NCBI GenBank assembly: GCA_037443565.1
Contig: JBBIOB010000001.1
Span: 97,774-161,773 of the forward strand
Direction of reading: 5' to 3'
Length of the DNA stretch: 64,000 nt
Source of the DNA: Armatimonadota bacterium
GTDB taxonomy: Bacteria; Sysuimicrobiota; Sysuimicrobiia; Sysuimicrobiales; Humicultoraceae
Made by a program: the position numbers and the translations under genes. Under the pieces are notes generated by a model. It did no database searches, was not told the DNA's origin, and was given only the letters and a program-made list of their open reading frames with translations. Of this stretch, positions 11,369 to 52,466 are shown piece by piece; position 1 is the first letter of the stretch, and every line of letters begins with the position of its first letter.

Positions 11369-11369
11369 C

Positions 11370-29444: not shown

Positions 29445-29474
29445 TAGCCCGTCCTGGGGGGATCGCGGTCCGCG

Positions 29475-30725: not shown

Positions 30726-30880
30726 GAACTGGCAGCATCGTACCACATCTCCGCGCCCATCTGCCCGGCCCGGGGACACCTGGCGGCGCCCCCGGTCCCT
30801 TGGACGGGCTATTGTTGCGGCGCGCGGCCTCCCTGTACAGTGGGGTGGGTCGAAGGAGTAGACGACGCAGAGGAGGATCC

Positions 30881-33328: not shown

Positions 33329-33334
33329 CGGTCC

Positions 33335-34657: not shown

Positions 34658-37109
34658 GGCACAGGCCGTCGTCATCGGCGGCGGGATCGTCGGCTGCAGC
34701 ATCGTCTACCACCTGTCGTTCATGGGATGGCGCGACGTCGTGCTCGTGGACAAGGCCGATCTCACCAGCGGATCCACCTGGCATGCCGCCGGGCTCGTGG
34801 GACAGCTGCGGGGCTCGCTCAGCCTGACGCGCATCATGATGTTCAGCGTCGAGCTGTATGCGCGCCTCGCCCAGGAGACCGGGCAGGAGACGGACTGGCG
34901 CCAGTGCGGCAGCCTGCGGCTGGCCTCGACGCCCCTGCGCATGGAAGAGAACCTGCGCCAGGCCGCGCTGGCGCGGACATTCGGGCTGCCCGTCGAGGTG
35001 CTGAGCGCCCACGAGGCGGTAGGGCTGTTCCCGCTGCTGAGTGAGACGGACCTCGTCGGCGCGGTCTACATGCCGACGGACGGCCGCGTGGACGGCAGCG
35101 GTGTGACGTTTGCAATGGCGCGCGGCGCGCGGAGCCGGGGCGTGGACATCTATACCAATACGACGGTGCAGCAGATCCAACTCAAGAACGGTCACGTGGA
35201 CGCGGTGGTCACCGACCGGGGAACCATCCGGACGCCGGTCGTGGTCAACGCCGCGGGCATGTGGGCCGACCAGATCGGCCGGATGGCCGGTGTGCGCGTG
35301 CCGATCGTCCCAATGCAGCACCAGTACCTGCTGACCGAGCCGATCGACGGCATGCGGCCCGAGTTCCCGGTGGTGCGCGATCCCGACCTGCGCGTGTACG
35401 CGCGCGAGGAGGTCCGGGGTCTCGTCGTCGGCGGGTTCGAGGCGCAGCCCGAGCCGTGGTCGACCGACGGTGTGCCCAACGAGTTCGTCCACCGGCTGCT
35501 GCCGACCAACTGGCCGATCTTCGAGCCGGTGGTCCGCAACGCGGCAAAGCGCATCCCGGCGTTCGAGCACGCCGAGATCTCGAAGGTCATCAACGGGCCC
35601 GAGGCGTTCACGCCCGACGGGGAGTTCATGATGGGCGAGGCGCCCGGCGTCCGGGGGTTCTTCGTCGCCGCGGGTTTCAACGCGTACGGGATCGCGGCCG
35701 GCGGCGGCGTGGGCCGCGTGCTTGCCGAGTGGATCGTCGACGGCCAGCCGAGCCTGGACGTATGGCGGATGGACATCCGGCGGTTCGGGCCGCAGTACGC
35801 GCACGCGTCGCACACGATAAGCCGGTCGGTGGAGGCATACACGCGCCGGTACGGCGCCGTGAGCCTGCCGTTCGAGGAATGGGACACCGCCCGCCGCTTC
35901 CGGTTGAGCCCGGTCTATCCGCGCCTAGTGGACCTGCGTGCGGCATTCGGCGAGAAGGGCGGATGGGAGCGGCCGAACTGGTTTGCCAGCAATGAGCCTG
36001 CCGGCGGCGGCACGGGCGCCGGGACCGTGGCGGCCCCTGCGGGGAGCTGGACCCCGCTGGGCTGGGCGCGGCACAACTGGTCGCCGGCCATGGCTGCGGA
36101 GCACCTGGCCGCGCGAGAGGCGGCAGGCCTCTTCGACTTCACGTCGTTCAGCAAGCTCGAGGTCAAAGGCGCGGGGGCGCTGGCGGCGTTGCAGTGGCTG
36201 ACGGACAACGAGATGGACAGGCCGCCGGGCAGCGTGACCTACACGCAGATGCTGAACGCCCGGGGCGGTATCGAGTGCGACCTGACGGTCACGCGACTGG
36301 GCCCGGACAGGTTCATGATCGTCACCGGCAGCGCCTTCGGCCCCCATGACCTGGACTGGATCCGCAAGCACCTGCCGGCCGACGGTTCGGTGACGGCAAC
36401 GGACATCACGACGGACCTCGCCTGCATCGGGCTATGGGGCCCCCGCGCCCGCGACGTCCTGCGGCGGGTGTGCGAGGAAGACCTGTCCGAGGCCGCGTTC
36501 CCCTACATGACGTGGCAGGAGATCCGTGCGGCAGGGGTTCCGGTGCGCGCGCTGCGCGTGACGTACGTCGGCGAGCTCGGCTGGGAGCTGTACGTGCGCC
36601 CCGACGATGCCCTGCGCCTCTGGGACGCGCTGTGGGAAGCGGGACGGCCGCTGGGCCTGCGGCCGGTCGGCTACCGCGCGGTGGACTCGCTGCGACTCGA
36701 GAAGGGCTACCGGTACTGGAGCGCGGACATCACGCCGGACTACACACCGTACGAGTCCGGCCAGGCGTTCTGCGTCAAGCTCGACAAGGGCGACTTCCAG
36801 GGCCGCGGCGCGCTGCTGCGGCAGAAGGCTGAAGGATTGACGCGGATGCTGTGCTGTCTGGTGCTGGCCGACCCGCAGCGGGTCGTGCTCGGCAACGAGC
36901 CGGTGTTCGAGGACGATCGGCTGGTGAGTCGCGTCACAAGCGGCGGATACGGCTACTACGTGGGCGAGAGCATCGCCTACGCGTACCTGCCGGTGCGCCT
37001 GGCGACGCTGGGTGCCGAGGTGAGCATCGAGGTCGACGGGATGCGCATCCCGGCGACGGTCCAGCGCGACCCGCGCCACGACCCGACCGGCAGCCGCATC
37101 AAGGCATAG
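34647..37109 (+). CDS. Dimethylglycine/sarcosine dehydrogenase family protein, paralog 2
   Basis: 820 aa, ATG at 34647 overlapping the aminotransferase stop by 11 bp. GGGIVGCSIVYHL, STWHAAGL (covalent FAD His), GcvT-like C-terminal domain. Confidence 0.8.
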   Translation: MKSEAQAVVIGGGIVGCSIVYHLSFMGWRDVVLVDKADLTSGSTWHAAGLVGQLRGSLSLTRIMMFSVELYARLAQETGQETDWRQCGSLRLASTPLRMEENLRQAALARTFGLPVEVLSAHEAVGLFPLLSETDLVGAVYMPTDGRVDGSGVTFAMARGARSRGVDIYTNTTVQQIQLKNGHVDAVVTDRGTIRTPVVVNAAGMWADQIGRMAGVRVPIVPMQHQYLLTEPIDGMRPEFPVVRDPDLRVYAREEVRGLVVGGFEAQPEPWSTDGVPNEFVHRLLPTNWPIFEPVVRNAAKRIPAFEHAEISKVINGPEAFTPDGEFMMGEAPGVRGFFVAAGFNAYGIAAGGGVGRVLAEWIVDGQPSLDVWRMDIRRFGPQYAHASHTISRSVEAYTRRYGAVSLPFEEWDTARRFRLSPVYPRLVDLRAAFGEKGGWERPNWFASNEPAGGGTGAGTVAAPAGSWTPLGWARHNWSPAMAAEHLAAREAAGLFDFTSFSKLEVKGAGALAALQWLTDNEMDRPPGSVTYTQMLNARGGIECDLTVTRLGPDRFMIVTGSAFGPHDLDWIRKHLPADGSVTATDITTDLACIGLWGPRARDVLRRVCEEDLSEAAFPYMTWQEIRAAGVPVRALRVTYVGELGWELYVRPDDALRLWDALWEAGRPLGLRPVGYRAVDSLRLEKGYRYWSADITPDYTPYESGQAFCVKLDKGDFQGRGALLRQKAEGLTRMLCCLVLADPQRVVLGNEPVFEDDRLVSRVTSGGYGYYVGESIAYAYLPVRLATLGAEVSIEVDGMRIPATVQRDPRHDPTGSRIKA

Positions 37110-37162: not shown

Positions 37163-37192
37163 TGTGTGTAGAAGTGACCTCATGTGAGGGCG

Positions 37193-37887: not shown

Positions 37888-39015
37888 TCAGCCTGCCGCC
37901 GGTACCGGGACCCCGATCCCCATCTCCTCTAACACCTCTCGAATCGCCGCCAGGGCGCCGCGTATGTCGTCTTCGGTGAGCCGGCCGATGCAGCCGATGC
38001 GGAAGGAGTCGGTCACCGTCAGCTTGCCCGGATAGATCAGGTAGCCCCGCTGCGCGAGCCGGTCGTAGAACGTCTTGAATTCGAACCGGGGGTCGGCGGG
38101 CGTGTGGAAGGTGACGATGATGGGCGCCTGAAGCGCATCCGGCAGCAGCGGCCTGAAGCCCATCGCCCGCATGCCGTCGACCAGCACCCGGCAGTTGCGC
38201 CGGTAGCGCGCGCCGCGGGCCTCGACGCCCCCCTCGGCCGCGTGCTCGTCCAGGGCCCGATCGAATGCCGCAAGCACGTGCGTCGGCGGCGTGAAGCGCC
38301 ACTGACCGGTCCGCTCCATGTAGGTCCACTGGTCGTGGAGGTCCAGTGAGACCGAATGGGCGTTGCCGGCAGCGGCCTCGAGGGCCTGTCTGCGGCAGAT
38401 GACAAACGCCGCCCCGGGCACTCCTTCGATGCACTTGTTGAACGACGACGCCAGCGCGTCGAACGGGACCTCGCGCGTGTCGCAGCGCAGCGCGCCGAAC
38501 GCGCTCATCGCGTCGATCAGGAGCCGCCGCCCGGCCCGGGCGACGGCCGCGGCCACCTCCGCCAGCGGGTTGAGGATGCCCGAGGTCGTCTCGCAATGCA
38601 CCACGGCCACATGCGTGATCGCGGGATCGGCCGCCAGCCTCGTGGCCACGGCCCCGGGATCCACCGCGGCGTCTTCGGGCCACTCCAGGGGTGTGTGCGG
38701 ACGCCCGATGACACCGCAGATCCGCGCCATCCGCTGGCCGTAGGCGCCGTTGATCAGGATCAGCACGTTGCCGTCGCGGGGCACGAAGGTTCCGAGCATC
38801 GCCTCGACCGCGAACGTGCCCGATCCCTGGAGCAGGACGGCCACGTGCGAGCCGGCCCCGCCCACCATCGCGACCAATCGCTCGCGCACCCTGGCGTTCA
38901 TAGCGATGAACGTGCCGTCGCGCGACCCCCAGTCACGGAGCATCGCCTCTTTGGTCGTCCGCGACGTCGTCAGCGGTCCGGGTGTGAGCAGCAGGGGGTC
39001 GGCGTGGTGCGCCAT
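37888..39015 (-). CDS. phnW: 2-aminoethylphosphonate:pyruvate aminotransferase (PhnW), class V aminotransferase
   Basis: 376 aa from the ATG at 39015. [27 protein letters not shown] matches the PhnW N-terminal signature (Salmonella [20 protein letters not shown]). Similarity continues over the full length ([18 protein letters not shown]). Confidence 0.85.
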   Translation of the reverse strand: [375 protein letters not shown]

Positions 39016-39023
39016 CGAGCGCT

Positions 39024-40730
39024 TCACCTCTTCCTCCAGGCCTGCGTGCGGCGGTCCAGGTACCGCGACAGCAGCACGTGCAGCAGCTTGACCGTCGCCG
39101 ACGTGTAGGCGATCATCATCGCCATGGCCGCGGCCGCGCCCTGCTGGCCCGTCTCGTCCATGTAGACCACGGCGATCGACGCCACCCGGGTCTCGGGGAC
39201 CCACAGGAAGATCAGCGCAGAGACCGTGGTCATCGCATTCACGAAGAAGTAGACCGCGATGTCGAGGATCGCCGGCAGGCACACCGGCACCGTCACCTTC
39301 CAAAAGGTCCGGTAGAACGGCGCCCGCAGCGACGCGGAGACCGCCTCGAACTCGCTGTCGAGCTGCTTGAGCGCCGTCGTGGCCGTGAGATGGCTCACGG
39401 TATAGAAGTGGGCAATGGTGTTGATGACCATGATCGCCAGCGTGCCATAGAAGAAGCCCAACGGGTTCCTCGGATGATTGAAGAAGAAGATGTAGCTGAG
39501 ACCCAGCACCAGCCCCGGCACGGCGAGCGGCAGCATGGCGAAGAGCTGGGTGATCGAGCGCAGCGTGGGGTTCCCGCGGATCTTCTCCTGGAAGTAGGCT
39601 CCGGTGAACACGACGGCCGTGCCGATCAACGCGGCCAATCCCGCCAGGCGCAGCGAGTTGAAGTACGGAAGCCAGCCCGCGGTCTCAAAGCGCGCGAACT
39701 CGTAGTTCCGCAAGCCCAGCGTCAGGTTGTACGGCCAGAACCGGATGAACGAGCCCCAGGCCGCAGTGGCCAGGAGCCCGACGACAGGAACAACGATGAG
39801 CGCGCACATCGCGAAGAAGGGCCAGTCCGTCAGTGGCCGAGGGCGGGGCTCCAGCGGCACCGCCTGCGCCGTGAGCGCGGCCATCTGCCTGCGCCGCACG
39901 AAGCGCTCGGCCGCGAACGATAGCAGGGCCGGGACGAGCAGCACCATGCTCACCACCGCGCCCATCTCGAAGTTCTGCCGGCCGTAGACCTGCTTGTAGA
40001 TGTCGGTGGCTAGAACGTTGAACTGGCCGCCGATGACCTTGGGGATGCCGAAGTCGGTAATGACCAGGGTGAAGACGACGAAGGCGGCGCTGATGATCCC
40101 ATACCGGGCCCCGGGCAGCGTGACTGTGAAGAACACCCGCCGCGGCGAGGCGCCCAGCGCCGCCGCCGACTCGTAGAGCCGCGCATCCGAGGTCCGCAGC
40201 GCGGTAACCAGGATCATCAGCGCGTGCGGGAAACAGTAAATCGACTCAGCGAGGATGATCCCGATCGGGCCGTAGATCGAGTGGCCGAACAGCCAGCTTC
40301 GCAGGAACCCCTGGTTTCCGAACAGGTAGACCAGGGCGAGGGCCTGCAGGAACGAAGGCGCGAGAATCGGGATGAGGGCCAGGGCGCCGAACAACCCCTT
40401 GGCCCGCATGGACGTCCTGGTCAGCGCGTAGGCGTAGAGGAACGAGCCCGGAAGCACCAGCGCCGTGGCCACGGCGGCGATCATGAGGCTGTTCCAGAGC
40501 GACGAGAGGAGGGCCGGGTTGGAGAAGTACTCGGCGTAGTTGGCCAGCCCGACGAACTGTCCCTGACGGTCCAGGACGCTCTTGGAGAGCAGCGCCCACA
40601 GCGGGAGGGCCACGGTGATCAGCAGCCACAGGGTCAGGGCCGCAAGGCCCGCGCGGGCCAGCCACTCGTCGCGGGCGAGCTTCTGCCGGACCGGAGCCGC
40701 CGCCGCTGTCGCGGTCGCCATGGCGCTCAC
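39024..40730 (-). CDS. Fused two-domain ABC permease (PhnU/PhnV-like)
   Basis: 568 aa, two permease repeats. 4-bp overlap with the upstream ATPase gene. Confidence 0.8.
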   Translation of the reverse strand: MSAMATATAAAAPVRQKLARDEWLARAGLAALTLWLLITVALPLWALLSKSVLDRQGQFVGLANYAEYFSNPALLSSLWNSLMIAAVATALVLPGSFLYAYALTRTSMRAKGLFGALALIPILAPSFLQALALVYLFGNQGFLRSWLFGHSIYGPIGIILAESIYCFPHALMILVTALRTSDARLYESAAALGASPRRVFFTVTLPGARYGIISAAFVVFTLVITDFGIPKVIGGQFNVLATDIYKQVYGRQNFEMGAVVSMVLLVPALLSFAAERFVRRRQMAALTAQAVPLEPRPRPLTDWPFFAMCALIVVPVVGLLATAAWGSFIRFWPYNLTLGLRNYEFARFETAGWLPYFNSLRLAGLAALIGTAVVFTGAYFQEKIRGNPTLRSITQLFAMLPLAVPGLVLGLSYIFFFNHPRNPLGFFYGTLAIMVINTIAHFYTVSHLTATTALKQLDSEFEAVSASLRAPFYRTFWKVTVPVCLPAILDIAVYFFVNAMTTVSALIFLWVPETRVASIAVVYMDETGQQGAAAAMAMMIAYTSATVKLLHVLLSRYLDRRTQAWRKR

Positions 40731-41857
40731 CCCCTGGCGAACACGCGGATGCGATCGGCCGGGAGCGACACGGTGATGGTCTTCCCTGGGGCCAGGTCGC
40801 CTTCACGCTGGAGGTGGATGGGCACGTCGGCCCGGACCTCCGCCGTGCCCGCGGCCGCGGGCCGCAGCGTCGCGCGATAAAACGATCCCAGGAAATCCAG
40901 GGCGACAATCTCCACCGGCATGGCATTGACGGCGGGGGCGCCCGCGTTTCGGACATCCACATCCTCGGGCCGGAAACACACCCGAACCAGGGCGCCCGGG
41001 GACAGTCCGTCCGTGGTGTCGCACCGCAGCTCCGTGGTCCCCACGCGGATCACGTCAGGGCCCATCAGCACGCCGTCCAGGAAGTTCATCTCTCCCACGA
41101 AGTCGGCGACGAACGGCGTCGCGGGATTCCGGTAGATCTCGATCGGCGTGCCGATCTGCTCCACGACCCCATGGTTCATGACGACGATGCGGTCGGCCAT
41201 CGTCAGCGCCTCTTCCTGGTCGTGGGTGACCAGGACCGTCGTGATGCCGAGCCGGCGCTGGAGGCTGCGAATCTCGTGCCGGAGGCGGATGCGCAGCCGG
41301 GCGTCGAGGGCCGAGAGCGGTTCGTCGAGGAGCAGCAGGCCCGGCGACGGCGCCAGTGCCCGCGCGAGCGCCACCCGCTGCTGCTGCCCGCCGGAGAGCT
41401 GCGCCGGATACTTGCGCGCCGCATCGGGCATGCCGATGAGCGCCAGGAGCTCACCCACCCGCGCGGCGATCTGCTCGCGCCTCATCCTCCGGCTGTGCAG
41501 CCCGTACGCGACGTTGTCGAAGACCGTCAGGTTCGGAAAGAGCGCGTACGACTGAAACACGATGCCGAAGTCGCGCTGCGCGGGCGGCAGAGCGGAGATG
41601 TCGCGATCCTGATGCAGGATCCGGCCCTGCGTCTGGACCTCCAGGCCCATGATGATCCGCAGCAGCGTCGTCTTGCCGCACCCCGAGGGGCCGAGCAGGC
41701 AGACGAACGCGCCGTGCTCGATGTCGAACGAGACGTCCATCAGCGCGGTGAAGGTTCCAAACCGCTTCCAGATGGACTCGATGCGCAGATAGGCCGCCGC
41801 GGTGTGGCCTGCTGCAGTGTGCTGTGCGCCGGCGGCGCCGGAGTGCACGCGATTCAT
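40727..41857 (-). CDS. ABC ATP-binding protein (PhnT/PotA-like)
   Basis: Walker A GPSGCGKTT, LSGGQQQRV, LLLDEP, VTHDQ. The start is assigned to MNRVH...; an upstream Met at 41914 is possible. Confidence 0.8.
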   Translation of the reverse strand: MNRVHSGAAGAQHTAAGHTAAAYLRIESIWKRFGTFTALMDVSFDIEHGAFVCLLGPSGCGKTTLLRIIMGLEVQTQGRILHQDRDISALPPAQRDFGIVFQSYALFPNLTVFDNVAYGLHSRRMRREQIAARVGELLALIGMPDAARKYPAQLSGGQQQRVALARALAPSPGLLLLDEPLSALDARLRIRLRHEIRSLQRRLGITTVLVTHDQEEALTMADRIVVMNHGVVEQIGTPIEIYRNPATPFVADFVGEMNFLDGVLMGPDVIRVGTTELRCDTTDGLSPGALVRVCFRPEDVDVRNAGAPAVNAMPVEIVALDFLGSFYRATLRPAAAGTAEVRADVPIHLQREGDLAPGKTITVSLPADRIRVFARG

Positions 41858-41935
41858 GGTAAAGGCGCCAGCCCCCGTCCTGACGACACCCGAGACGGGG
41901 GCTGGCCGGTGCATCTCACCCGACTGCCCGGTCGA

Positions 41936-42988
41936 TCAGCGCCGAGCCGACTTGCCGTCGTAGCGCCGCGTCCACTCTTTGAGAATGCGGTCGCGGTTCT
42001 TCGCCATCCAGGCGAAGTCGTTCTTGATCATCGAGGTTTCACCCTGAGGGGGGTAGAAGGGAGGAACGTTGGTGATGCCTGGATAGGCGACCACCGCGTA
42101 CCACTGGTTGTACATCTCATTGGCCTTGCGGGTGACCGACCAGTCGGCCAACCGCTGGGCCGCCGCCAGGTTGCGCGTCCCGCGGTGGATGGCCGTGGCC
42201 TCCATCTCCCAGCCGGAGCCTTCTCGCATGACCAGGACGTCGATCGGTGCGCCTTCCTGCTTCAGCCGGGCGCCGCGCATGTCGAACCCGATGCCCAGCG
42301 TGAACTCGCCACGGGCCGCCTGCACGCAGGGCGCCGACCCCGAGTGCAGATAGACGGCGACGTTCTCGTGGAGCTGGTTCATGAAGTTCCAGCCGTCCTG
42401 CTCGCCGAAGAGCTGCAGCCAGGCCGCGATAGTCAGGAATCCGGTCCCCGACGACGCCGGGTTCGGCATGACGATCTGCCCCTTGTAGAGGGGGTTGGCC
42501 AGGTCCTTCCAGGACCGAGGCTGGCGGATGTTGCGCCTGGCGGCCTCGCGCGTGTTGAAGCACACCACGGAGAGGTAGGCGTCCATGCCGGTCCAGGTCA
42601 TGGGGTTCCTGGAGCTGCGGAACTGCGGCTTGAGCTGATCGGCCCCTCTGGGCGTGTAAGGCTGGATCATGTTGAGTTCTTCGAAGACGAGGACGCTGGA
42701 GGCAGACAGGCCCCAGATGATGTCGGCCCGGGGGTTGTCCTTCTCCGCGATGAGGCGCGAGGTGACGGTGCCGGTCGAGTCGCGGACCCACGAGATGGTG
42801 ATGCCGGGGTTATCGGCCTCGAACATCTCCTTGTAGGGTCCCATCTGGTCGTTTTCGATCGCGGTGTAGACCGTCAACCGGACCGGCGCCTGAGCGAGAG
42901 CCTCGCCCGCTAGACCTGCGGCGAGAGCCAGGAGCACCACGAGCACTGCTGCCCGCATGAGCACACTACCAATCGCGACTCGCGGCAT
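41936..42988 (-). CDS. Periplasmic substrate-binding protein (PhnS/FbpA family)
   Basis: 350 aa. Sec signal peptide (AAVLVVLLALAAGLAGEALA), SBP_bac_8-like. Confidence 0.75.
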   Translation of the reverse strand: MPRVAIGSVLMRAAVLVVLLALAAGLAGEALAQAPVRLTVYTAIENDQMGPYKEMFEADNPGITISWVRDSTGTVTSRLIAEKDNPRADIIWGLSASSVLVFEELNMIQPYTPRGADQLKPQFRSSRNPMTWTGMDAYLSVVCFNTREAARRNIRQPRSWKDLANPLYKGQIVMPNPASSGTGFLTIAAWLQLFGEQDGWNFMNQLHENVAVYLHSGSAPCVQAARGEFTLGIGFDMRGARLKQEGAPIDVLVMREGSGWEMEATAIHRGTRNLAAAQRLADWSVTRKANEMYNQWYAVVAYPGITNVPPFYPPQGETSMIKNDFAWMAKNRDRILKEWTRRYDGKSARR

Positions 42989-43105
42989 AGATACCCTCCC
43001 CCTCTGGATCGAGCCGTCTGGCGATTGCAGTAGCCGGTAGTATTCATCAGGATCCTGTCGAGTCCTTGTGCACCTTTCCCGCCGCCCGGCACCCCAGGCC
43101 GGCGG

Positions 43106-44572
43106 CTACGTGCCCAGCCGCATCCGGATGCTCTTGATCTGGGTGTAACTCAACATTTCCTCCAGGCATTCCTCTCTGCCGATCCCGCTCTGCTTGATGC
43201 CGCCGTAGGGCAGCCCCAGCGCGTGGCCGCCGGGGATGTTCACCCAGATGTACCCGGCCTCGAGCCGCCTCGCGACCCGCTGGGCGCGCGCGTGGTCCCG
43301 CGTGTAGATCGCCGCGCTCAGGCCGTAGATGACCCCGTTGGCCTGTCGGATCATTTCGTCCTCGTCGTCCCACGTCAGCACAGCCATCACCGGTCCGAAG
43401 ATCTCTTCCTGCGCGATGCGCATCTCGGGGCGCACGCCGCCGAACACCGTGGGTTCGACGAAGTAGCCGTGCCGGAGTGCCGGATCGTCTGGCGGCCCGC
43501 CACCGCACAGCAGGCGGGCGCCCTCGCGGCGGCCGGCCTCGATGTAGGTCATCACCTTCTCGTACTGCTCCTTTGAGATCAGGCACCCCACCTGGCTCTC
43601 CTCGGCCTCGGGTAGGCCCAGGCGCAGATCCCGCAGGCGGGCGAGGAGTGCCTCGATGAACGCGGCGTGCAGGCTGTTGTGCACGAAGATGCGCGAGGTG
43701 CTGCTGCACGACTGACCGGCCCGGTTGAGATTCATGGCCCCCACCGCGGCGTCGGCGGCCTCGCTAGGGTCCACGTCGGGGAAGAGGATCAGCGGGTTCT
43801 TGCCGCCCAGTTCGAGGGTGACCGTCTTCAACCCGTCGCTGGCCGCGCGCATGACGGCCCGCCCGGCCTCCACCGACCCGATCAGGGCGATGCGCCGCAC
43901 GAGCGGGTGGCGGACCAGCGCCGCGCCGGTCGTCGGCCCGTCTCCCGTGACGATGTTGACCACGCCCGGCGGGAAGATCTCTTGAATCAGGGATCCGAGC
44001 ACCAGCGACGACAGGGGCGCCTGCTCGGGCGGCTTGAGGACCACGGTGTTCCCGGCGGCCAGAGGCGCCGCCAGCTTCTCCGCCGCAAAGCGCAGCGGGT
44101 GGTTGTAGGGATTGATCTTCGCGACCACGCCGAACGGCTCGCGGAGCGTGTAGGCGAGCGTGGCAGCGTCGGTCGGCAGCACCTCGCCCTTGATCTCCGG
44201 GATGAGGCCCGCGAAGTAGTCGAGCGAGTCCGCGGCCCAGTCCACATCGCGCCGCATGCCGGTGATGACGTTGCCGGAGTTAAGGGCATCCAGCCGCGCC
44301 AGGTCCTCGCCGTGCCCGCGCAATGCGGCCGCCAGCGCCCGCAGGCGCGCTCCCCGCTCGGGCCCGGGGGTCTCGGCCCACGACGGGAACGCATCGGCCG
44401 CGGCGCGGACCGCCCGGTCGACGTCTGCCTCGTCGGCCAGCGGCACCCGGCCGAGCGCCGCGCGCGTGGCGGGGTTGTACGTCGTGATCATGCGGTCTGA
44501 ACGGCTGTCCTCCCACCGCCCGCCGATGAACAGCCGGCCCTGCGGGATCTGCTCAAGGAGCGCCGGGCCCAT
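43106..44572 (-). CDS. Aldehyde dehydrogenase (candidate phosphonoacetaldehyde dehydrogenase PhnY-like)
   Basis: 488 aa. GNTVVLKP, ELGGKNP, catalytic Cys (GQSCSS), EEIFGPV. The function is inferred from the phnW/ABC context only. Confidence 0.7.
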   Translation of the reverse strand: MGPALLEQIPQGRLFIGGRWEDSRSDRMITTYNPATRAALGRVPLADEADVDRAVRAAADAFPSWAETPGPERGARLRALAAALRGHGEDLARLDALNSGNVITGMRRDVDWAADSLDYFAGLIPEIKGEVLPTDAATLAYTLREPFGVVAKINPYNHPLRFAAEKLAAPLAAGNTVVLKPPEQAPLSSLVLGSLIQEIFPPGVVNIVTGDGPTTGAALVRHPLVRRIALIGSVEAGRAVMRAASDGLKTVTLELGGKNPLILFPDVDPSEAADAAVGAMNLNRAGQSCSSTSRIFVHNSLHAAFIEALLARLRDLRLGLPEAEESQVGCLISKEQYEKVMTYIEAGRREGARLLCGGGPPDDPALRHGYFVEPTVFGGVRPEMRIAQEEIFGPVMAVLTWDDEDEMIRQANGVIYGLSAAIYTRDHARAQRVARRLEAGYIWVNIPGGHALGLPYGGIKQSGIGREECLEEMLSYTQIKSIRMRLGT

Positions 44573-44575
44573 GGC

Positions 44576-45433
44576 TTAGCGCGCTCCTTCCTGCCGTCGG
44601 GAGAAGGGACGATCCGGGGGGCCATCGTAGAACTCCGGCTTCTGCAGCGACAGGTCCAGTGGCTGCACGATCGAGGCGTTGGTCGATGCCCGCCAGCCCC
44701 GCTCGCGGTGCAGCTCTTCGTAGGTATGGGCGATCAGCGATACGGTGCGCGACAGCAGGTACACGCCCTTGATCAGGTCCAGATCGAATCCCATGTCCAT
44801 GCAGATTGCGCCCACCGCGCCGGGACCGTTCAGGTAGATGCGCCGCCCCCAGAACTCCTCGGTGGCCGACTCGATGGCCCTTGCCATCTCCACGTGGCGG
44901 GCGGCGACGCCGTATTCATCCGCCAGCTCGAGGAGGCGCGCCGTGCGCGGGTCGATGATGTGCTGCGCGTGATGGTACCCCGGCAGCCGCCGGCCTTCGC
45001 GCCTGGCCTCGCCCGCAGTCCGGCGGGCGGCATCTCCGAGGGAGAGTCCATCGCGATCCATCAGGGCGACCGCGTCTCTGAAGAGCTCGGCTGGGCGGTC
45101 GGCTGTGCCGTGCAGTGACCCCAGGGTCATGATCCCGCCGGCCACGCCGACGTTCAGCGGAACCCCGCCGGAGGTGACGAACCGGCAGGCCGCCGACGAG
45201 GGGGAGAACGCGTGCTCGGCCTGGTTGACCAGGATGGCGTCGAGCATGCGCGCGTGATGTTCGGGCGGCAGCTCCCCCCGCCAGACGAGATAGGCCATCT
45301 CGGTGAACGAGATGTTGCCGGTCAGGTCGTTGATGTTGTAGCCGCGGACGACCACGCGGTCCCTGGTCTTGTACGCGATCGCCGTCCGCCAGTGAAACGG
45401 CTCGCGCTCCTTGACCGCCGCAGAATCCATCAT
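44576..45433 (-). CDS. Citrate synthase-family small protein (citryl-CoA lyase-like)
   Basis: 285 aa. PGYHHAQHIIDPRTARL parallels the citrate synthase GFGHRVYK..DPRA catalytic His loop. Its size matches citryl-CoA lyase-type short homologs. Confidence 0.5.
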   Translation of the reverse strand: MMDSAAVKEREPFHWRTAIAYKTRDRVVVRGYNINDLTGNISFTEMAYLVWRGELPPEHHARMLDAILVNQAEHAFSPSSAACRFVTSGGVPLNVGVAGGIMTLGSLHGTADRPAELFRDAVALMDRDGLSLGDAARRTAGEARREGRRLPGYHHAQHIIDPRTARLLELADEYGVAARHVEMARAIESATEEFWGRRIYLNGPGAVGAICMDMGFDLDLIKGVYLLSRTVSLIAHTYEELHRERGWRASTNASIVQPLDLSLQKPEFYDGPPDRPFSRRQEGAR

Positions 45434-46251
45434 GCCCTCCTTGAAGACGCTGCCTCTTCGGCCTTCAGATAGAGCCGCCCGGGATCCAGCTCGTCACGCA
45501 GCACGCGGAGGTCATCCGACGCCGGCGGCGCCACCGCGCGCAGATCCGGTGCCACCTCCGGTCGAAACCCCGTCTCCGCCAGCACCTCCTCGACCCGGAC
45601 ACCGGGCATGAGCGCGGTCACGCGGAGGGCGCAGGTCTCGGGGTCGTTCTCCATGACCGCCAGGTCGGTCACCACGGCGACTGAGAAATCCGGGTTCAAT
45701 CCGGCCCGCTGCCGGCCGCCGGGGCCGTCCAAGAATCCGGGGCTCGTGATGTAGTCGCAGCGTTCGGGAAACCTCCGGCGCTCGTGATGCGTGATGATCA
45801 GCAGGCGCCTGCAGTGGGAAGCCATGTCGTTGGCCCCGCCGCTGCCCGGCAGCCGGCGAATGCCGTGTGGACGAGCGATCTGGGTCGAGTTGATGTTGGC
45901 GTACCGGTCGATCTGGGCGCCCCCGAGAAAGCCGACGTCGATGAGGCCCCGCTGGAGCAGGCCGCCCAGGACCTCGCGCAGCGTCCCGAGCCGCACCGCC
46001 CTATACATGGCCTTCGGGTCCGACACCGAGATGGGGGTGGGGCGGACCTGCGGCGCGATCACGCCGCTCTCGATGACCATGACGATGTGGGGCGCGTGGG
46101 TGCGCTGGGCCAGCGTGGTCGCCAGCAGCGGCAGTCCCGTGCCGACGAACACCACCTCGCCGTCCCGAAGCCGCCTGGCGGCCTCGATGACCATCAACTC
46201 CTGGCGCGAGGCTCCTGCGCCGACGGCGGGTGTGTCGCCGGAAGGCATCAC
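45430..46251 (-). CDS. CoA-transferase subunit B (3-oxoacid/glutaconate CoA-transferase family)
   Basis: 273 aa. VNLGIG-like region (VGTGLP) and the glutamate-containing C-terminal region of family I CoA transferases. 4-bp overlaps on both sides. Confidence 0.65.
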   Translation of the reverse strand: MMPSGDTPAVGAGASRQELMVIEAARRLRDGEVVFVGTGLPLLATTLAQRTHAPHIVMVIESGVIAPQVRPTPISVSDPKAMYRAVRLGTLREVLGGLLQRGLIDVGFLGGAQIDRYANINSTQIARPHGIRRLPGSGGANDMASHCRRLLIITHHERRRFPERCDYITSPGFLDGPGGRQRAGLNPDFSVAVVTDLAVMENDPETCALRVTALMPGVRVEEVLAETGFRPEVAPDLRAVAPPASDDLRVLRDELDPGRLYLKAEEAASSRRA

Positions 46252-47162
46252 GTTATCTCCCGCATGGCCTCGGCCAGCGCTTCGAGGTGCGGCGGGCCCG
46301 CGGCCCGCATCAGGTAGCCGTCGAAGGTGCCGTGTGCCCAGACGTTCGCCGCGAGGTAGGCCTCAACGGCCGGACCGCCGGCGCGCGCGGCCTCCTGGTA
46401 GGCGGACACTTCGTCGGCATCGTAGTCGTAGAAGCCATAGGTGGACGTGGGGTAGGCGCCGCAGGGCTGCACTACCACGGCGTCCACATACAGGAACGGC
46501 ACCGTCGTGCGCTCGGGATGGGCCCGGACCTCGTCGGTCGTGATGAGCGTCTCGCAGCTGACGATGACGTGCCGCGAGGCGCGGATCATCTCGGGCTCGT
46601 GCGTCGCAAACCCCTCGATGATGATGTTGCCGAGGGGGTCGGCGCGCTGCACGTGCACGATCGAGACGTCCGGCTGGAGGGCGGGAACCAGCACCACCGG
46701 CTCGGCCGGACTCCACGGGTTCTCGGTAACGACGGCTTTCCCCGGCCGGCCGCCGTCTGGTGGCGGCAACAGGTCTGAGCCCAGCAGGCTCCGGACCGGC
46801 ATGAACGGCACGCCCATCTCGCCCGCGAGGAAGCGGCTCACCATCGCCAGATGGCTGTAGTCTTCCACCTCAAGGGTGCCGTCCTCGATGCCGCGCCGCC
46901 AGCAGAACGTGGTGCCAAACCGCTCTAGATTGCCGGAGCCGCTCTCGCACCGCCTCACGAGCCCGGCGCCTACGAGCTGGTCCATCCCGATCGACAGGTT
47001 GCAGCCCACGACGGTCAGGCCGCCGATCCGCTGGCGGATGATCTCATGGGTCAGGGCCATCGGCACCCGGCCGATGTTCTGCCCGCCCATGCCGAGTACG
47101 GCGCCGGGGCGTACGAACCGCGCCACGGCCTCGGCCGCGCTCATGACCTTGTCCGCGTACAT
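46248..47162 (-). CDS. CoA-transferase subunit A
   Basis: 304 aa. Family I CoA-transferase A subunit fold (VLGMGGQNIG... , VDYSHLA...). First gene of the minus-strand operon. Confidence 0.65.
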   Translation of the reverse strand: MYADKVMSAAEAVARFVRPGAVLGMGGQNIGRVPMALTHEIIRQRIGGLTVVGCNLSIGMDQLVGAGLVRRCESGSGNLERFGTTFCWRRGIEDGTLEVEDYSHLAMVSRFLAGEMGVPFMPVRSLLGSDLLPPPDGGRPGKAVVTENPWSPAEPVVLVPALQPDVSIVHVQRADPLGNIIIEGFATHEPEMIRASRHVIVSCETLITTDEVRAHPERTTVPFLYVDAVVVQPCGAYPTSTYGFYDYDADEVSAYQEAARAGGPAVEAYLAANVWAHGTFDGYLMRAAGPPHLEALAEAMREIT

Positions 47163-47224
47163 GCTTGCAGTGGATTATCGGCCCCGCCGACAAATAAAGT
47201 CAAATAAGGAGATTTGCTCATCCT

Positions 47225-47239
47225 ATAAGTGGCACTTAT
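47225..47239. promoter_or_regulatory. Perfect 15-bp palindrome ATAAGTG-G-CACTTAT (a T-N11-A LysR box) in the divergent promoter
   Basis: Read directly from the sequence. It lies between the CoA-transferase operon start (47162) and the LysR gene, preceded by the AT-rich direct repeat CAAATAAAGTCAAATAAGGAG. Confidence 0.45.
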
Positions 47240-47357: not shown

Positions 47358-48320
47358 ATGGGCGGCGGCATCCCGCTGGCGCCGTTGAGGACTTTTCACC
47401 TTGCGGCGATGCATCAGAGTTTCAACCGGGCCGCCCGGCATCTGGGCGTCACGCAGCCGGCGGTGACGCAGCAGATCCGCCGGCTGGAGCAGGCCGTCGG
47501 GCTCCGGCTGTTCCACCGGGAGGGCCGGCGCCTGGCGTTGACCGACGCGGGGCACACCCTTCGCACCTTTACCGGCCGCATCTTCCATCTCGTCGAGGCC
47601 GCGCGTGAAGCCCTCGAGGGCGCCTCGGCGCTGCAGACCGGCCACCTGCGGGTGGGAGCCAGCCGCACCGCCGGTGCTTATTACATCGCCGCCCTGATCG
47701 ACCGGTTCAAGCGGCGCTATCCCGGGGTGAAGGTGAGCCTCTCGGTCGGCAACTCTCAGATGATCGTGGCCGGCGTCCTGGACTTCAGCCTGCACGCGGG
47801 GCTGGTTGCCGGCCGGCCCGACGACCCTCACCTGGTCGCGCTGCCGCTCATCCGAGACCGGATGCTGGTCGTGCTCCCGCCCGACCACCGCCTCGCGCGC
47901 AAGTCCGCGCTCTCCATTGAGGATCTCCGCGGATCCCCCCTGGCGATGCGCGAGCCCGGCTCCACGACCCGGCACCTGATCGAGCAGGCGTTCGCGGCGT
48001 CCGGGTTGACCGTGGATCCTTCCATGGAGCTCGAGAGCAACGAAGCGATCAAGAGCGCGGTGGCCGATGGCATCGTGGTGGCGATCATGGCCCACGCCGC
48101 GGTGGCGGACGACCTGGCCGCGGGGCGCCTTGTCGGCCGCCGGCTGCGCCGACCGCTCTGGATCGACTTCGCGCTGGTTTACCACCGCGACCGCATCCTC
48201 TCACCTGTGCTTGCTTCGTTCCTGGCCCTGCTGCCGCGCCGTCAGCCGCCGGCGCGGCCGCGGCAGACATCGAGCGGGACGGCCCGACGCGGGCCGGCCG
48301 GACATCTGGAGGTCTCGTGA
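47358..48320 (+). CDS. LysR-family transcriptional regulator
   Basis: HTH LRTFHLAAMHQSFNRAARHLGVTQPAVTQQIRRLE plus a LysR substrate-binding domain. The start is assigned to the Met immediately before the HTH; the six-frame ORF extends upstream to 47229. Confidence 0.75.
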   Translation: MGGGIPLAPLRTFHLAAMHQSFNRAARHLGVTQPAVTQQIRRLEQAVGLRLFHREGRRLALTDAGHTLRTFTGRIFHLVEAAREALEGASALQTGHLRVGASRTAGAYYIAALIDRFKRRYPGVKVSLSVGNSQMIVAGVLDFSLHAGLVAGRPDDPHLVALPLIRDRMLVVLPPDHRLARKSALSIEDLRGSPLAMREPGSTTRHLIEQAFAASGLTVDPSMELESNEAIKSAVADGIVVAIMAHAAVADDLAAGRLVGRRLRRPLWIDFALVYHRDRILSPVLASFLALLPRRQPPARPRQTSSGTARRGPAGHLEVS

Positions 48321-49696
48321 TGGATGCGATGATGCCCGACCGGTCGGAAGGCGACATCAACCTGACGTCGCTACGCACGGCCTGGCAGGCGGAGGCCCTC
48401 GACGCGCAGACGCGGGCGCTGCTCGATGAGGACGCCCGCTACTTCCTGCACCAGTCGCTGTCCACCCCCTGCCTGAACGCGCTGCGGCGTGCGGACGGCA
48501 TCTACCTCGAGGACCTCCAGGGCCGGCGCTACATGGACTTCCACGGAAACAGCGTCCACCAGGTCGGCTTCGCGAATCCCGCGGTGATCGCCGCGGTCAA
48601 GGCGCAGCTCGATGACTTGAGCTTCTGTCCTCGCCGCTACACGAACCGGACCGCGGTGGCCCTGGCGCGGAAGCTCGCCGCGCTCGCGCCCGACGACCTC
48701 AACAAGGTGCTGCTCTGCCCGAGCGGGACCGGCGCGATCGGCATCGCGCTCAAGCTCGCCCGGGTGGTCACCGGCCGCCACAAGACCATCTCAATGTGGG
48801 ATTCGTTCCACGGCGCCTCGCTCGATGCCATTTCGGTCGGCGGGGAGGCGCTCTTCCGGCGCGGGATTGGCCCCCTCCTGCCAGGGGCGGCGCATGTGCC
48901 GCCGCCCGATCCCTACCGCTGCGCCTGGGACTGCGGCGGCCGCGGCGGGTGCGATCTGCAGTGCGCCCGACACATCGAGTACGTGCTGGAGAAGGAAGGC
49001 GATGTGGCCGCCGTGATGGCCGAGACCGTACGCAGCCTTCCGGTGATCCCGGCCCCCGACTTCTGGCGGACCGTCCGGCGCGCCTGCGACCGCCACGGCG
49101 CGCTGCTGATCCTCGACGAGATCCCCAACGGCCTCGGCCGCACCGGCGCGATGTTCGCCTGCGAGCACTTCGGCGTCACGCCCGACGTGCTCGTGCTCGG
49201 GAAGGGGCTGGGCGGCGGGATCCTTCCGATGGCCGCGGTCATCACGCGCGATCGCTTCAACGTCGCGGGGGACCTCGCGCTCGGCCACTACACGCACGAG
49301 AAGAACCCGGTGGCCTGCGCGGCCGCGCTCGCGACGATCCGGTACATCGAGGAGCACGGGCTGATCGCGCACGCGCGGGACCTCGGGCGGTCCGCGATGA
49401 GGCGGCTGTCGGCGATGCAGGCGCGCCATCCGCTGGTCGGCGATGTCCGCGGCCTGGGGCTGCTGATGGGGGTCGAGCTCGTGACCGACCGCGCGTCGCG
49501 GACCCGCGCCGTGGCCGAGGCCGAGGCGGTCATGTACCGCGCGCTCACCAGGGGGCTGAGCTTCAAGTTGACGATGGGCAACATCATCACGCTCAGCCCG
49601 CCGTTGACGATCACCCGCGAGGAGATGGATCGGGCCCTCGACATCCTGGACGCCTGCCTGACCGAGGTCGAATCTCTCAAGGAGAGGCGCGGATGA
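48317..49696 (+). CDS. Class III aminotransferase (omega-amino acid/ taurine-pyruvate aminotransferase-like)
   Basis: 459 aa. The AT-III fold with GNSVHQVGFANP, DEIPNGLGRTG, PLP-Lys region (VLGKGLGGG). Start overlaps the LysR stop. Confidence 0.8.
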   Translation: MMDAMMPDRSEGDINLTSLRTAWQAEALDAQTRALLDEDARYFLHQSLSTPCLNALRRADGIYLEDLQGRRYMDFHGNSVHQVGFANPAVIAAVKAQLDDLSFCPRRYTNRTAVALARKLAALAPDDLNKVLLCPSGTGAIGIALKLARVVTGRHKTISMWDSFHGASLDAISVGGEALFRRGIGPLLPGAAHVPPPDPYRCAWDCGGRGGCDLQCARHIEYVLEKEGDVAAVMAETVRSLPVIPAPDFWRTVRRACDRHGALLILDEIPNGLGRTGAMFACEHFGVTPDVLVLGKGLGGGILPMAAVITRDRFNVAGDLALGHYTHEKNPVACAAALATIRYIEEHGLIAHARDLGRSAMRRLSAMQARHPLVGDVRGLGLLMGVELVTDRASRTRAVAEAEAVMYRALTRGLSFKLTMGNIITLSPPLTITREEMDRALDILDACLTEVESLKERRG

Positions 49697-50352
49697 TCGA
49701 TCAACCGGAGTGTGCCCCCGGCCAGACCCTGCTCTACACGCTGCGGCACGGGCTGACCGAGCTCAACCGGTCGAAGCGGACCGGCGGCCGGCTGGATGCT
49801 CCCCTCATCGACGTGGGACGACAGCAGGCCCAGGAGGCCCGCGCCAACTTCAATGGGACGCCGCTGGACGTGGTCATCGCCTCCAGCCTGCGGCGCGCCG
49901 TCGAGACGGCGGAGATCGTGACCGGGTGGCCGCGCGAGCGCATCATCATCGACGACCTGGCCATCGAGCGGTCGTTCGGCGAGATGGAAGGGCTGACGCA
50001 GGACGAGATCCGCGTCCGCTTTCCCCAGGTGATCTACGTGCCGATCGAGCACGTCCGGTACTCGCTCAATCCGCCGAGTGGCGAGTCGTTCGAGGCCCTG
50101 CGGGCGCGGGCCCGGGCGTTTCTGGAGAAGACCCTCGGCGCCCATCGCGGCAGGAGGGTCCTCGTCTCGTCGCACCAGAACTTCATGCAGCAGCTCCACG
50201 CCGAGTTGCGCGGACTGGACCCGTACGCCGCGCTGCGGTACGACATCCTGAACCTGGAGCTCAACCAGTTCCACCTCGACACCGACGGCCGGCTGCTTGG
50301 CCACCGCGTCTACTACCTCTGTCCGGACGCCTCGAAATACCCTTCATTCTGA
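49693..50352 (+). CDS. Histidine phosphatase (phosphoglycerate-mutase-like) family protein
   Basis: 219 aa. RHG catalytic motif (LRHGLTELN) and a later H (SSHQNF). ATGA overlap with the upstream stop. Confidence 0.6.
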   Translation: MIDQPECAPGQTLLYTLRHGLTELNRSKRTGGRLDAPLIDVGRQQAQEARANFNGTPLDVVIASSLRRAVETAEIVTGWPRERIIIDDLAIERSFGEMEGLTQDEIRVRFPQVIYVPIEHVRYSLNPPSGESFEALRARARAFLEKTLGAHRGRRVLVSSHQNFMQQLHAELRGLDPYAALRYDILNLELNQFHLDTDGRLLGHRVYYLCPDASKYPSF

Positions 50353-51689: not shown

Positions 51690-52466
51690 ATGACGATGGG
51701 ACGCCTGGACGGTAAGGTCGTACTGATCACCGGAGCCGGCAGCGGCATGGGCCGGCTGGCCTCAGAGCTGTTCGCGCGGGAGGGCGCGCGGATCGTCGTG
51801 AGCGAGATCGTCGAGGCGGCGGGCCAGGAGACGGTCGCGCGGGTGCGCGCAGCGGGCGGTGAGACCGTCTTCGTCCGCACCGACGTGTCCCGGGAGGCCG
51901 ATGTCGCCGAGGCGGTGCGTGCCGGCGAGGCCGCGTTCGGCAGGATCGACGTGCTCTACAACAACGCGGGTATCTTCCCGGCCGAGGATGGATCGGTCGT
52001 GGATCTCGACGAGGCCGTGTGGGACCGCGTCATGAGCATCAACCTCAAGGGCATCTACCTGGTCTGCAAGCACGGCGTCCCGGCGCTGCTGCGGGCCGGG
52101 GGCGGATCGATCATCAACATCGCGTCGTTCGTGGCGCTCGTCGGCTGCACGGTGCCCCAGGACGCCTACACGGCCAGCAAGGGTGCGGTGATCGCGCTGA
52201 CCAAGTCGCTGGCCGTGCAGTTCGGGCCGAAGGGGATCCGCAGCAATGCGATCTGTCCCGGACCGATCGAGACGCCGCTGCTGACCGAGTGGCTGCTTAC
52301 CAACCCCGAGGCCAAGCGCGTCCGGCTGGCCCGGATTCCGATGGGGCGCTTCGGCCGATCCGAGGACATCGTCTACCTGGCCATGTACCTGGCCTCCGAC
52401 GAGTCGAGCTGGACCAACGGCGCGGTGCTGGTGGCGGACGGAGGCATCACGTCCAACTACTTTTAG
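51690..52466 (+). CDS. Short-chain dehydrogenase/reductase (SDR)
   Basis: TGAGSGMGR (TGxxxGxG), NNAG, YxxxK (YTASKGAV), PG motif. Confidence 0.85.
   Translation: MTMGRLDGKVVLITGAGSGMGRLASELFAREGARIVVSEIVEAAGQETVARVRAAGGETVFVRTDVSREADVAEAVRAGEAAFGRIDVLYNNAGIFPAEDGSVVDLDEAVWDRVMSINLKGIYLVCKHGVPALLRAGGGSIINIASFVALVGCTVPQDAYTASKGAVIALTKSLAVQFGPKGIRSNAICPGPIETPLLTEWLLTNPEAKRVRLARIPMGRFGRSEDIVYLAMYLASDESSWTNGAVLVADGGITSNYF

Follow-up and report, generated by a model that had tools for sequence, protein, structure and literature searches.

2-Aminoethylphosphonate (AEP) is the most abundant natural phosphonate. To our knowledge, only a few enzyme types break a carbon-phosphorus (C-P) bond, namely C-P lyase, PhnX, PhnA, phosphonopyruvate hydrolase (PPH) and oxygenase pairs of the PhnY*/PhnZ type, and all hydrolytic C-P cleavages of which we know use a beta-carbonyl electron sink, either a Schiff base (PhnX) or a metal-bound carboxylate or keto group (PhnA, PPH). 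Published systematic analyses of AEP gene clusters describe only the phnWX and phnWYA types, together with the accessory proteins PbfA, PbfB, PbfC, PbfD and PbfF. Here we describe an AEP gene cluster found in a 64-kb stretch of DNA (the window; all coordinates are window positions), in which genes for an aldehyde dehydrogenase (ALDH), a two-subunit coenzyme A (CoA) transferase (CoAT-A and CoAT-B) and a short citrate-synthase-fold protein (hereafter CS-like protein) share an operon with phnW. The G+C content of the window is 68-70%, and its closest public relatives are metagenome-assembled genomes (MAGs) of the candidate phylum CSP1-3/Sysuimicrobiota, such as Ca. Fervidifonticultor secundus and 'Armatimonadetes bacterium CSP1-3'.

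We class the locus as an AEP catabolic cluster of known kind with a new terminal module. It very probably serves the catabolism of AEP and 1-hydroxy-AEP (HAEP) by a route with a non-canonical end. We consider it quite possible, if short of probable, that in this LysR-controlled system the ALDH, CoAT-A/B and an altered enzyme of the citrate synthase fold take the place of the customary C-P-cleaving enzymes (PhnX, or PhnY plus PhnA), the altered enzyme forming acetyl-CoA and phosphate from phosphonoacetyl-CoA. No link of CoA-transferases or citrate-synthase-like proteins to phosphonate catabolism was found in the full-text literature, where 'phosphonoacetyl-CoA' appeared in a single unrelated biosynthetic study, the flavophos preprint, and there solely as a prediction that was not realised. 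The genomic papers on CSP1-3/Sysuimicrobiota that were found do not mention phosphonates.

The phnWYA system of Sinorhizobium meliloti has in common with the window the PhnS2T2U2 type of importer, PhnW and PhnS2 (56% and 55% identical, respectively, to the proteins encoded on pSymB at the phnWAY locus), a LysR regulator, an ALDH acting after the transaminase and the predicted intermediates as far as phosphonoacetate. It differs in that the window lacks PhnA, has an ALDH of another subfamily and carries a CoA-transferase and a citrate-synthase-fold protein where PhnA would act; PhnA cleaves the free acid at a zinc centre, whereas the cleavage proposed here would occur on a thioester. With the phnWX pathway (PhnW and PhnX with accessory PbfA, PbfC, PbfD and PbfF) the locus shares the feeding of phosphonoacetaldehyde by PhnW and PbfA and the clustering of feeder genes round a core. 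In contrast to that pathway, no PhnX of the haloacid dehalogenase (HAD) type is present in the window or in full-length related clusters.

Operon layout and substrate genes

The operon runs on the minus strand from 47162 to 37888 and consists of eight genes in the order CoAT-A, CoAT-B, CS-like, ALDH, PhnS2, PhnT2, PhnU2 and PhnW; the first-pass annotation of this DNA had proposed the same operon, and every gene is present at the coordinates it gave (Table 1). The overlaps between CoAT-A and CoAT-B, CoAT-B and the CS-like gene, and PhnT2 and PhnU2 are 4 nt each, and gaps of 3, 21 and 8 nt separate the CS-like gene from ALDH, PhnS2 from PhnT2 and PhnU2 from PhnW, respectively. The widest gap, 117 nt, lies between ALDH and PhnS2. 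Judged by the 4-nt overlaps and 3-21-nt gaps, the operon genes are translationally coupled, and a promoter/terminator scan revealed no convincing terminator inside the operon. The phnW start codon is ATG and is preceded by a ribosome-binding site, GGAGGAAGAGG. The public call of the CS-like gene begins one codon later than the open reading frame (ORF) in the window.

Related loci were collected with a profile of the CS-like protein, which retrieved 80 genomic loci (designated L with a number), and the window proteins and reference phosphonate enzymes were mapped onto them. The identical eight-gene order, with 75-85% protein identity, was found in the independent MAG contigs L003, L005, L008 and L010, where the complete arrangement includes the divergent LysR and PbfA genes. 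Since the order recurs in these four contigs, the eight-gene arrangement is not due to chance.

The substrate side of the locus is assigned at the equivalog level. PhnW, which the first reading had already identified, scores 549 bits with NF010006 (cut-off 296) and 498 bits with TIGR02326 (cut-off 401), and is 67% identical to Azospirillum PhnW. All three importer proteins exceed their cut-offs as well: PhnS2 with 446 bits (393), PhnT2 with 509 (458) and PhnU2 with 783 (593), AEP being only a 'putative' ligand within the definition of the family itself. The importer had been taken for a four-component PhnSTUV-like system, which was wrong: there are three genes, one of them for a permease with two fused domains, and they are of the PhnS2/T2/U2 type rather than that of Salmonella PhnSTUV. 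Directly beyond the divergent LysR gene lies pbfA, which had been overlooked; its position after LysR is kept in L002, L003, L005, L006, L008, L010, L011 and L019. Because PhnW and PbfA both yield phosphonoacetaldehyde, the locus has two entries into this intermediate.

PhnX and PhnA were searched for by tblastn, the queries being the Azospirillum and S. meliloti proteins, respectively. In the 64-kb window neither had a match at E<=1e-5, in agreement with the first-pass annotation. PhnX had no match in L003, L005, L008 and L010, and PhnA was absent from 80 out of 80 loci holding a CS-like homolog. A PhnX or PhnX-like gene was present in two of these 80 loci, L023 and L037.

The terminal module and its proposed chemistry

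The nearest solved relative of the CS-like protein is the citryl-CoA lyase of Hydrogenobacter thermophilus (6HXP, 7.7e-43), which was also the top Foldseek match of its structure model; nearly all of the top 30 matches were citryl-CoA lyase modules. The scores against the NCBIfam citryl-CoA lyase models were 223.8 bits (cut-off 245), 210.3 (212), 192.1 (193) and 174 (261), all below the cut-off, in what we describe as narrow misses. Active-site residues were compared by means of three independent HMMER pairwise alignments and an 85-sequence MAFFT alignment (82 homologs and three references). This analysis revealed that the position of the catalytic Asp (Asp375 in the NVD motif of pig citrate synthase) is occupied by Pro in 76 and Val in 6 of the 82 homologs and by Asp in none, while all three references have Asp; the motif reads N-[GAD]-[PV]-G in the homologs. 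The equivalents of His238, His274, His320, Arg329 and Arg401 are invariant, and H154, Q157, H158, D213, R243, W247 and R248 are newly invariant in the family. An HHxQH motif replaces GH-R, an HGTADRPA insertion is present and the C-terminal part contains REKGWRAS. Clustering at 50% set the Asp-less clade, which is compact, sharply apart from ordinary short citrate-synthase-like proteins, which retain Asp.

Because the catalytic Asp is absent, the CS-like protein is very probably not an ordinary citryl-CoA lyase. The label 'citryl-CoA-lyase-like', given at first reading, holds for the fold but misleads as to the function. With the modules represented by 6HXP and ATP-citrate lyase (ACL) the protein has in common the short citrate synthase fold and the five conserved His and Arg equivalents; it differs in the Pro or Val, in the three family motifs and in a genomic context of phosphonate metabolism rather than the reductive tricarboxylic acid cycle. 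Titles of PDB entries from the fold search describe citryl-CoA trapped in Asp-to-Ala mutants of ACL. We take the Asp mutated there to be the position lost in the CS-like protein, and hence to be essential for an ordinary lyase.

It is hardly credible that the operon contains an ordinary CoA-transferase and citryl-CoA lyase pair for citrate (or citramalate or malate) whose association with phosphonate genes is accidental. The public annotation, the best solved relative and the NCBIfam models just under cut-off speak for such a pair, but the Asp that we take to be the one mutated in the ACL citryl-CoA structures is missing from 82 of 82 homologs, several phyla show the association with phosphonate genes, in differing gene orders, and the operon is translationally coupled. 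The residue pattern would fit a substrate with an anionic group in place of the alpha-proton of acetyl-CoA. Farther Asp-less paralogs also adjoin CoA-transferase A/B genes. In L085 (4210-9116) two distant ones stand in tandem with an acyl-CoA dehydrogenase, CoA-transferase A/B, a TAXI/NMT1_3 binding protein and LysR, so that the wider Asp-less clade seems to pair generally with CoA-transferases.

The best solved relatives of CoAT-A and CoAT-B are the glutaconate CoA-transferase (Gct) subunits GctA (1POI_A, 3e-41) and GctB (1POI_B, 1.7e-47). A CoA_trans domain is found in both subunits and the active-site Glu in CoAT-B, as in the two-subunit class I architecture of GctAB; the ESG motif of CoAT-B aligns with that of GctB and is retained in 60 of 61 homologs. 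Identity to GctAB, as read from the alignments, is approximately 35-40%. Gct uses acetyl-CoA and dicarboxylates. Transferase activity of CoAT-A/B is not guaranteed, since the family includes decarboxylases and ring-cleaving hydrolases (AibAB, IpdAB; 5MZW, 6CON).

The ALDH had been placed in the 'PhnY position'. As a guess at function this is reasonable; as family membership it does not hold, the protein scoring 258 bits with the PhnY model TIGR03250 (cut-off 636), and its best NCBIfam matches are betaine aldehyde dehydrogenase (BADH)-like and under cut-off. Arg108, His159, Arg290 and Arg447 of PhnY reportedly bind the phosphonate, and we mapped these positions by alignment to the S. meliloti PhnY sequence. 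The ALDH has His at the His159 position (PYNHP), and P[YF]NHP is found in 11 of 11 orthologs; the same site reads PWNFP, with Phe, in the other ALDH of the window and in typical ALDHs. The ALDH of actinobacterial modules is of a different subfamily (36% identity to the window protein) and has Arg at the Arg290 position (GQRC) in 39 of 39 sequences; Arg108 is also kept there and His159 is not. Since the subfamilies differ, the ALDH function has been recruited to the module twice.

The following sequence of reactions can be envisaged. By family assignment, AEP would be imported by PhnS2T2U2 and transaminated by PhnW, and (R)-HAEP would be deaminated by PbfA, both giving phosphonoacetaldehyde. 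The ALDH would then oxidize phosphonoacetaldehyde to phosphonoacetate, the Gct-like CoA-transferase would convert the latter to phosphonoacetyl-CoA with CoA from acetyl-CoA or succinyl-CoA, and the citrate-synthase-fold enzyme would split the C-P bond of phosphonoacetyl-CoA, yielding acetyl-CoA and phosphate. A thioester is a far better electron sink than a carboxylate, and the citrate synthase fold is specialised for stabilisation of the acetyl-CoA enolate via His274. In the proposed reaction the His274 equivalent would stabilise the acetyl-CoA enolate leaving group, while the new invariant His and Arg residues may bind the phosphonate and activate water or form a phospho-enzyme. With Asp375 lost, a negative charge would be missing at the very site predicted to accommodate the alpha-phosphono group of the substrate.

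If acetyl-CoA is the CoA donor, a catalytic cycle like that of citrate lyase (CitF and CitE) or malonate decarboxylase (MdcA and the decarboxylase) would result: regenerated acetyl-CoA would prime the next round, and PO3 would leave instead of oxaloacetate or CO2. The likeness is an analogy from established knowledge, with no sequence relationship claimed. In each case an acetyl-thioester would donate the thiol carrier to an acid, and a second enzyme would expel a group and regenerate the acetyl-thioester. Unlike those enzymes, the window system would use free CoA instead of the prosthetic group of an acyl carrier protein, its second enzyme has the citrate synthase fold and not that of HpcH or crotonase, and its leaving group would be phosphate.

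Recurrence of the module and competing explanations

CoAT-A, CoAT-B and the CS-like gene stand side by side in all 59 loci that have enough flanking sequence within three groups (Sysuimicrobiota-like 15/15, Rokubacteria-like 5/5, actinobacterial 39/39). In L022 (Methylomirabilota/Rokubacteria) LysR, CoAT-A, CoAT-B and the CS-like gene are followed, further on, by PbfA (683 bits), PhnW, PhnS2 and PhnT2; L023, from the same group, has the triad with an ALDH and PhnW, the order being CS-like gene, ALDH, a LysR fragment, a PhnX-like HAD gene and PhnW. The 39 actinobacterial loci (Nonomuraea, Streptosporangium, Actinomadura, Spirillospora, Catenulispora, Sciscionella) have the core ALDH, CoAT-A, CoAT-B and CS-like, which adjoins a divergent ABC importer whose ATPase has PhnT2 as best match (377 bits on TIGR03265). 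A PhnW/AepZ-like transaminase (328 bits, cut-off 361) and LysR lie within 10 kb in 12 of the 39. At least three phyla have the triad in the neighbourhood of PhnW, PbfA and PhnS2T2U2-like genes. Among spirochaetes, the CS-like gene lies 3-4 kb from phosphoenolpyruvate (PEP) mutase (PepM), phosphonopyruvate decarboxylase (Ppd) and Fe-type alcohol dehydrogenase (Fe-ADH) genes in L027 and L055, and a PhnSTU-like importer, an aminotransferase and HAD hydrolases are encoded convergently to it in L035 and L040.

Several observations weigh against cleavage of phosphonoacetyl-CoA by the CS-like protein. For thirteen spirochaete homologs, 54-62% identical and with every motif retained, no CoA-transferase gene lies within 10 kb. 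Three spirochaete loci, L028 (10004-15083), L031 (239-2255) and L062 (5350-10846), have the CS-like gene in one operon with the phosphonate biosynthesis genes for PEP mutase, phosphonopyruvate decarboxylase, AEP transaminase and nucleotidyltransferases, where it is not obvious what a C-P hydrolase would do; no current hypothesis explains this context. In a further spirochaete locus, L037, PhnX and an HpnZ-like dehydrogenase are encoded divergently from the CS-like gene, and the PhnX-like HAD protein beside the module in L023 scores 158 bits, below the cut-off of 220. No ALDH is found in the 13.9-kb contig of L022, and some triads have a non-phosphonate setting, as with the dihydrolipoamide-dehydrogenase-like genes in Chloroflexota. 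In Rokubacteria L078 (4343-10843) the triad occurs with a TauA/NMT1-type ABC importer and an ApbA-type reductase and without phosphonate genes. In the window itself, the ALDH has Trp, Ser and His at the PhnY Arg108, Arg290 and Arg447 positions. The structure model of the CS-like protein is moderate (pLDDT 69, termini <50) and was used for fold assignment only. Finally, the genome is visible only as the 64-kb window, so that PhnX or PhnA could be encoded elsewhere, and everything past the family assignments is drawn from genomic context and residue patterns.

We regard as unlikely an explanation in which the CS-like protein acts on phosphonoacetaldehyde or a derivative of it, either as a CoA-independent C-P hydrolase like PhnX or as a C-C lyase/synthase that binds phosphonoacetaldehyde at its oxaloacetate site; the C2 product or a different intermediate would then be processed by the ALDH and CoA-transferase. 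It stays alive because phosphonoacetaldehyde is common to every context, being the sole intermediate shared by the catabolic (PhnW, PbfA, PhnX, HpnZ-like alcohol dehydrogenase) and biosynthetic (Ppd, AEP transaminase, Fe-ADH) settings; in addition, the spirochaete homologs lack a neighbouring CoA-transferase, and the invariant equivalents of the oxaloacetate-binding residues His320, Arg329 and Arg401 could bind a phosphonate aldehyde. However, the 59/59 adjacency of the triad in the non-spirochaete, non-Chloroflexota loci and the pairing of the distant paralogs point to an acyl-CoA substrate. A hydrolase of phosphonoacetaldehyde would duplicate PhnX in L037 and serve no purpose in the biosynthetic operons, the base needed for a Claisen-type reaction is absent here, and His or Arg at the phosphonate-binding positions of the ALDH pockets would be unexpected for acetaldehyde.

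The combination of a CS-like gene with a PhnX or PhnX-like gene in L023 and L037, together with the 64-kb limit of the visible genome, lends some weight to an improbable scheme in which a PhnX or PhnA encoded elsewhere cleaves the C-P bond and ALDH, CoA-transferase and CS-like protein only assimilate acetaldehyde to acetate, acetyl-CoA and onward; activity of ALDHs and CoA-transferases on acetaldehyde and acetate is common. That scheme leaves no role for a CS-like protein lacking the base to condense acetyl-CoA. Moreover, known AEP clusters (phnWX, phnWYA) have the hydrolase beside phnW, whereas the full Sysuimicrobiota-like clusters have none within 10 kb; acetate does not normally call for a dedicated Gct-like transferase in bacteria; and two unrelated ALDH subfamilies in the module each have basic residues at PhnY pocket positions.

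The triad of L078 may belong to an analogous pathway for sulfonates or other compounds. For the window, the first-pass annotation had considered a non-phosphonate omega-amino substrate such as hypotaurine or 3-aminopropionate analogs. We judge it very improbable that beta-alanine, taurine, hypotaurine or a similar compound is degraded there via the aldehyde, acid and acyl-CoA (malonyl-CoA, sulfoacetyl-CoA), with CO2 or sulfite removed by the CS-like protein. The chemistry, loss of X from X-CH2-CO-SCoA, is formally the same and in L078 the triad is coupled to the importer and reductase named above, but five window proteins (PhnW, PhnS2, PhnT2, PhnU2 and PbfA) exceed phosphonate equivalog cut-offs, PhnW and PhnS2 are close to proteins of the S. 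meliloti phnWAY locus, and the PbfA family acts on a phosphonate by definition. The other possibility raised at first reading, a CoA-dependent route for the phosphonate, is favoured over it by the adjoining PbfA, the recurrence of the triad in several phyla, the PhnY-like pocket His of the ALDH and the loss of the catalytic Asp from the CS-like protein; its individual steps we infer only.

Regulation, neighbouring genes and implications

The best NCBIfam match of the divergent LysR regulator is phn_lysR TIGR03339 (228 bits, below the cut-off of 341), and its gene is kept beside the operon in related loci. A perfect LysR-box palindrome, ATAAGTGGCACTTAT, is present upstream of the operon as first annotated, approximately 30 bases upstream of a -35/-10-like site, and L019, L020 and L029 have similar ATAA-N7-TTAT palindromes in the corresponding intergenic region. 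Downstream of pbfA, the histidine-phosphatase-superfamily gene is a conserved, putatively accessory gene, and the genes for a GCS2-type ligase and a short-chain dehydrogenase/reductase (SDR) are possible accessory genes. The SDR was considered as the HAEP racemase PbfF and rejected, PbfF being a 2-hydroxyacid dehydrogenase of pfam02826. Beyond the SDR gene, a PHP-domain protein is encoded convergently (52463-53317, minus strand).

Table 1. Features of the phosphonate locus and its surroundings (window positions)
Feature	Position	Strand	Evidence or remark
DAO+GcvT fusion oxidoreductase, 842 aa	30800..33328	+	GcvT, ThiO and SoxA-type matches
Class-III aminotransferase, HemL/GntE-like, between the two fusions	33335..34657	+	
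DAO+GcvT fusion oxidoreductase, 820 aa	34647..37109	+	GcvT, ThiO and SoxA-type matches
PhnW, 2-aminoethylphosphonate--pyruvate transaminase, last gene of operon	37888..39015	-	NF010006, TIGR02326
PhnU2, fused double permease, 568 aa	39024..40730	-	TIGR03262; two BPD_transp_1 stretches
PhnT2, ATP-binding subunit	40727..41914	-	TIGR03265; public call of same sequence (L001) starts at 41857
PhnS2, substrate-binding protein of AEP ABC importer	41936..42988	-	TIGR03261
NAD(P)-dependent aldehyde dehydrogenase, 488 aa	43106..44572	-	Pfam Aldedh 5.8e-157
Short citrate-synthase-fold (CS-like) protein, 285 aa, annotated 'citryl-CoA lyase'	44576..45433	-	Pfam Citrate_synt PF00285 2.2e-30
CoA-transferase subunit B, 273 aa	45430..46251	-	Pfam CoA_trans 2.1e-27; catalytic Glu in ESG motif
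CoA-transferase subunit A, glutaconate-CoA-transferase-like, 304 aa, operon gene 1	46248..47162	-	Pfam CoA_trans 1.3e-25
Putative sigma-70-like promoter, TTGACT-18 nt-GATAAT	47203..47174	-	Consensus scan, 10/12 matches; consensus match only
Perfect 7-1-7 palindrome, T-N11-A LysR-type box	47225..47239	.	Read from sequence, divergent intergenic region
LysR-family regulator, 320 aa, divergent	47358..48320	+	Pfam HTH_1, LysR_substrate; gene call in L001
PbfA, (R)-HAEP ammonia-lyase family	48317..49696	+	NF049939 716.6 bits, cut-off 525
Histidine-phosphatase-superfamily protein, 219 aa, RHG motif	49693..50352	+	Pfam His_Phos_1; 79-87% identical copies after pbfA in six related loci
GCS2-type carboxylate-amine ligase	50366..51661	+	Pfam GCS2; kept downstream of pbfA in several related loci
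SDR oxidoreductase	51696..52466	+	Pfam adh_short; kept downstream of pbfA in several related loci

On the other side of phnW, a convergent plus-strand operon (30800..37109) contains two DAO+GcvT fusion genes, the products of which are 48% and 46% identical to an uncharacterised FAD oxidoreductase encoded beside S. meliloti pSymB phnWAY. Homologs of the fusions occur near actinobacterial ALDH-CoAT-CS-like modules and adjoin phnW in L008. The operon may feed N-methylated aminophosphonates into the pathway, the fusions possibly acting as folate-dependent demethylases of N-methylated AEP. Identification of these 820- and 842-aa FAD enzymes as PbfC/PbfD was unsupported, since published descriptions of PbfC/PbfD go no further than membership of the DAO group (PF01266) and the window proteins are DAO+GcvT fusions. 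A methylenetetrahydrofolate reductase (MTHFR)-like gene and a LuxR regulator lie upstream of the fusions (region 27858-37109). Between phnW and the 820-aa gene, two small overlapping plus-strand ORFs (37184-37847; 91 and 131 aa) resemble, by eye only, an antitoxin/toxin pair, with a ribbon-helix-helix-like N-terminus followed by a PIN-like protein.

A second cluster on the minus strand (7815-17376) contains a PhnS2/T2/U2-like ABC importer whose binding protein scores 265 bits (cut-off 393), an ALDH (7815-9320), a metallohydrolase of the CehA/McbA type (14324-15424) and a GntI/ThiK-like kinase (16468-17376). A relative of this metallohydrolase is found beside PhnX and HpnZ in spirochaete L037. 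Downstream of the phosphonate island, plus-strand genes for PEP carboxykinase (ATP) and phosphofructokinase (54690-57494) belong to ordinary central metabolism.

We tentatively propose that the Asp-less citrate-synthase-fold protein may be a new kind of C-P hydrolase with a thioester substrate, phosphonoacetyl-CoA, which a dedicated CoA-transferase would supply. The result would be a third hydrolytic AEP route, dependent on CoA, beside PhnX and PhnY/PhnA, spread over Sysuimicrobiota, Rokubacteria/Methylomirabilota, Actinomycetota and possibly Spirochaetota. In general, such enzymes may expel anionic groups (PO3, possibly SO3) from X-CH2-CO-SCoA. If the proposal is true, the enzyme would be a categorically new C-P hydrolase and would represent new chemistry for the citrate synthase fold, and the names 'citryl-CoA lyase' or 'citrate synthase' would have to be corrected in hundreds of database entries. 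The hypothesis is directly testable, because the module is carried by cultured strains of Nonomuraea, Streptosporangium, Actinomadura, Catenulispora and Sciscionella. Surveys based on phnX, phnA and phnJ would, in that case, undercount phosphonate mineralisation in phyla of soil and the subsurface, among them CSP1-3/Sysuimicrobiota, Rokubacteria and streptosporangial actinomycetes.

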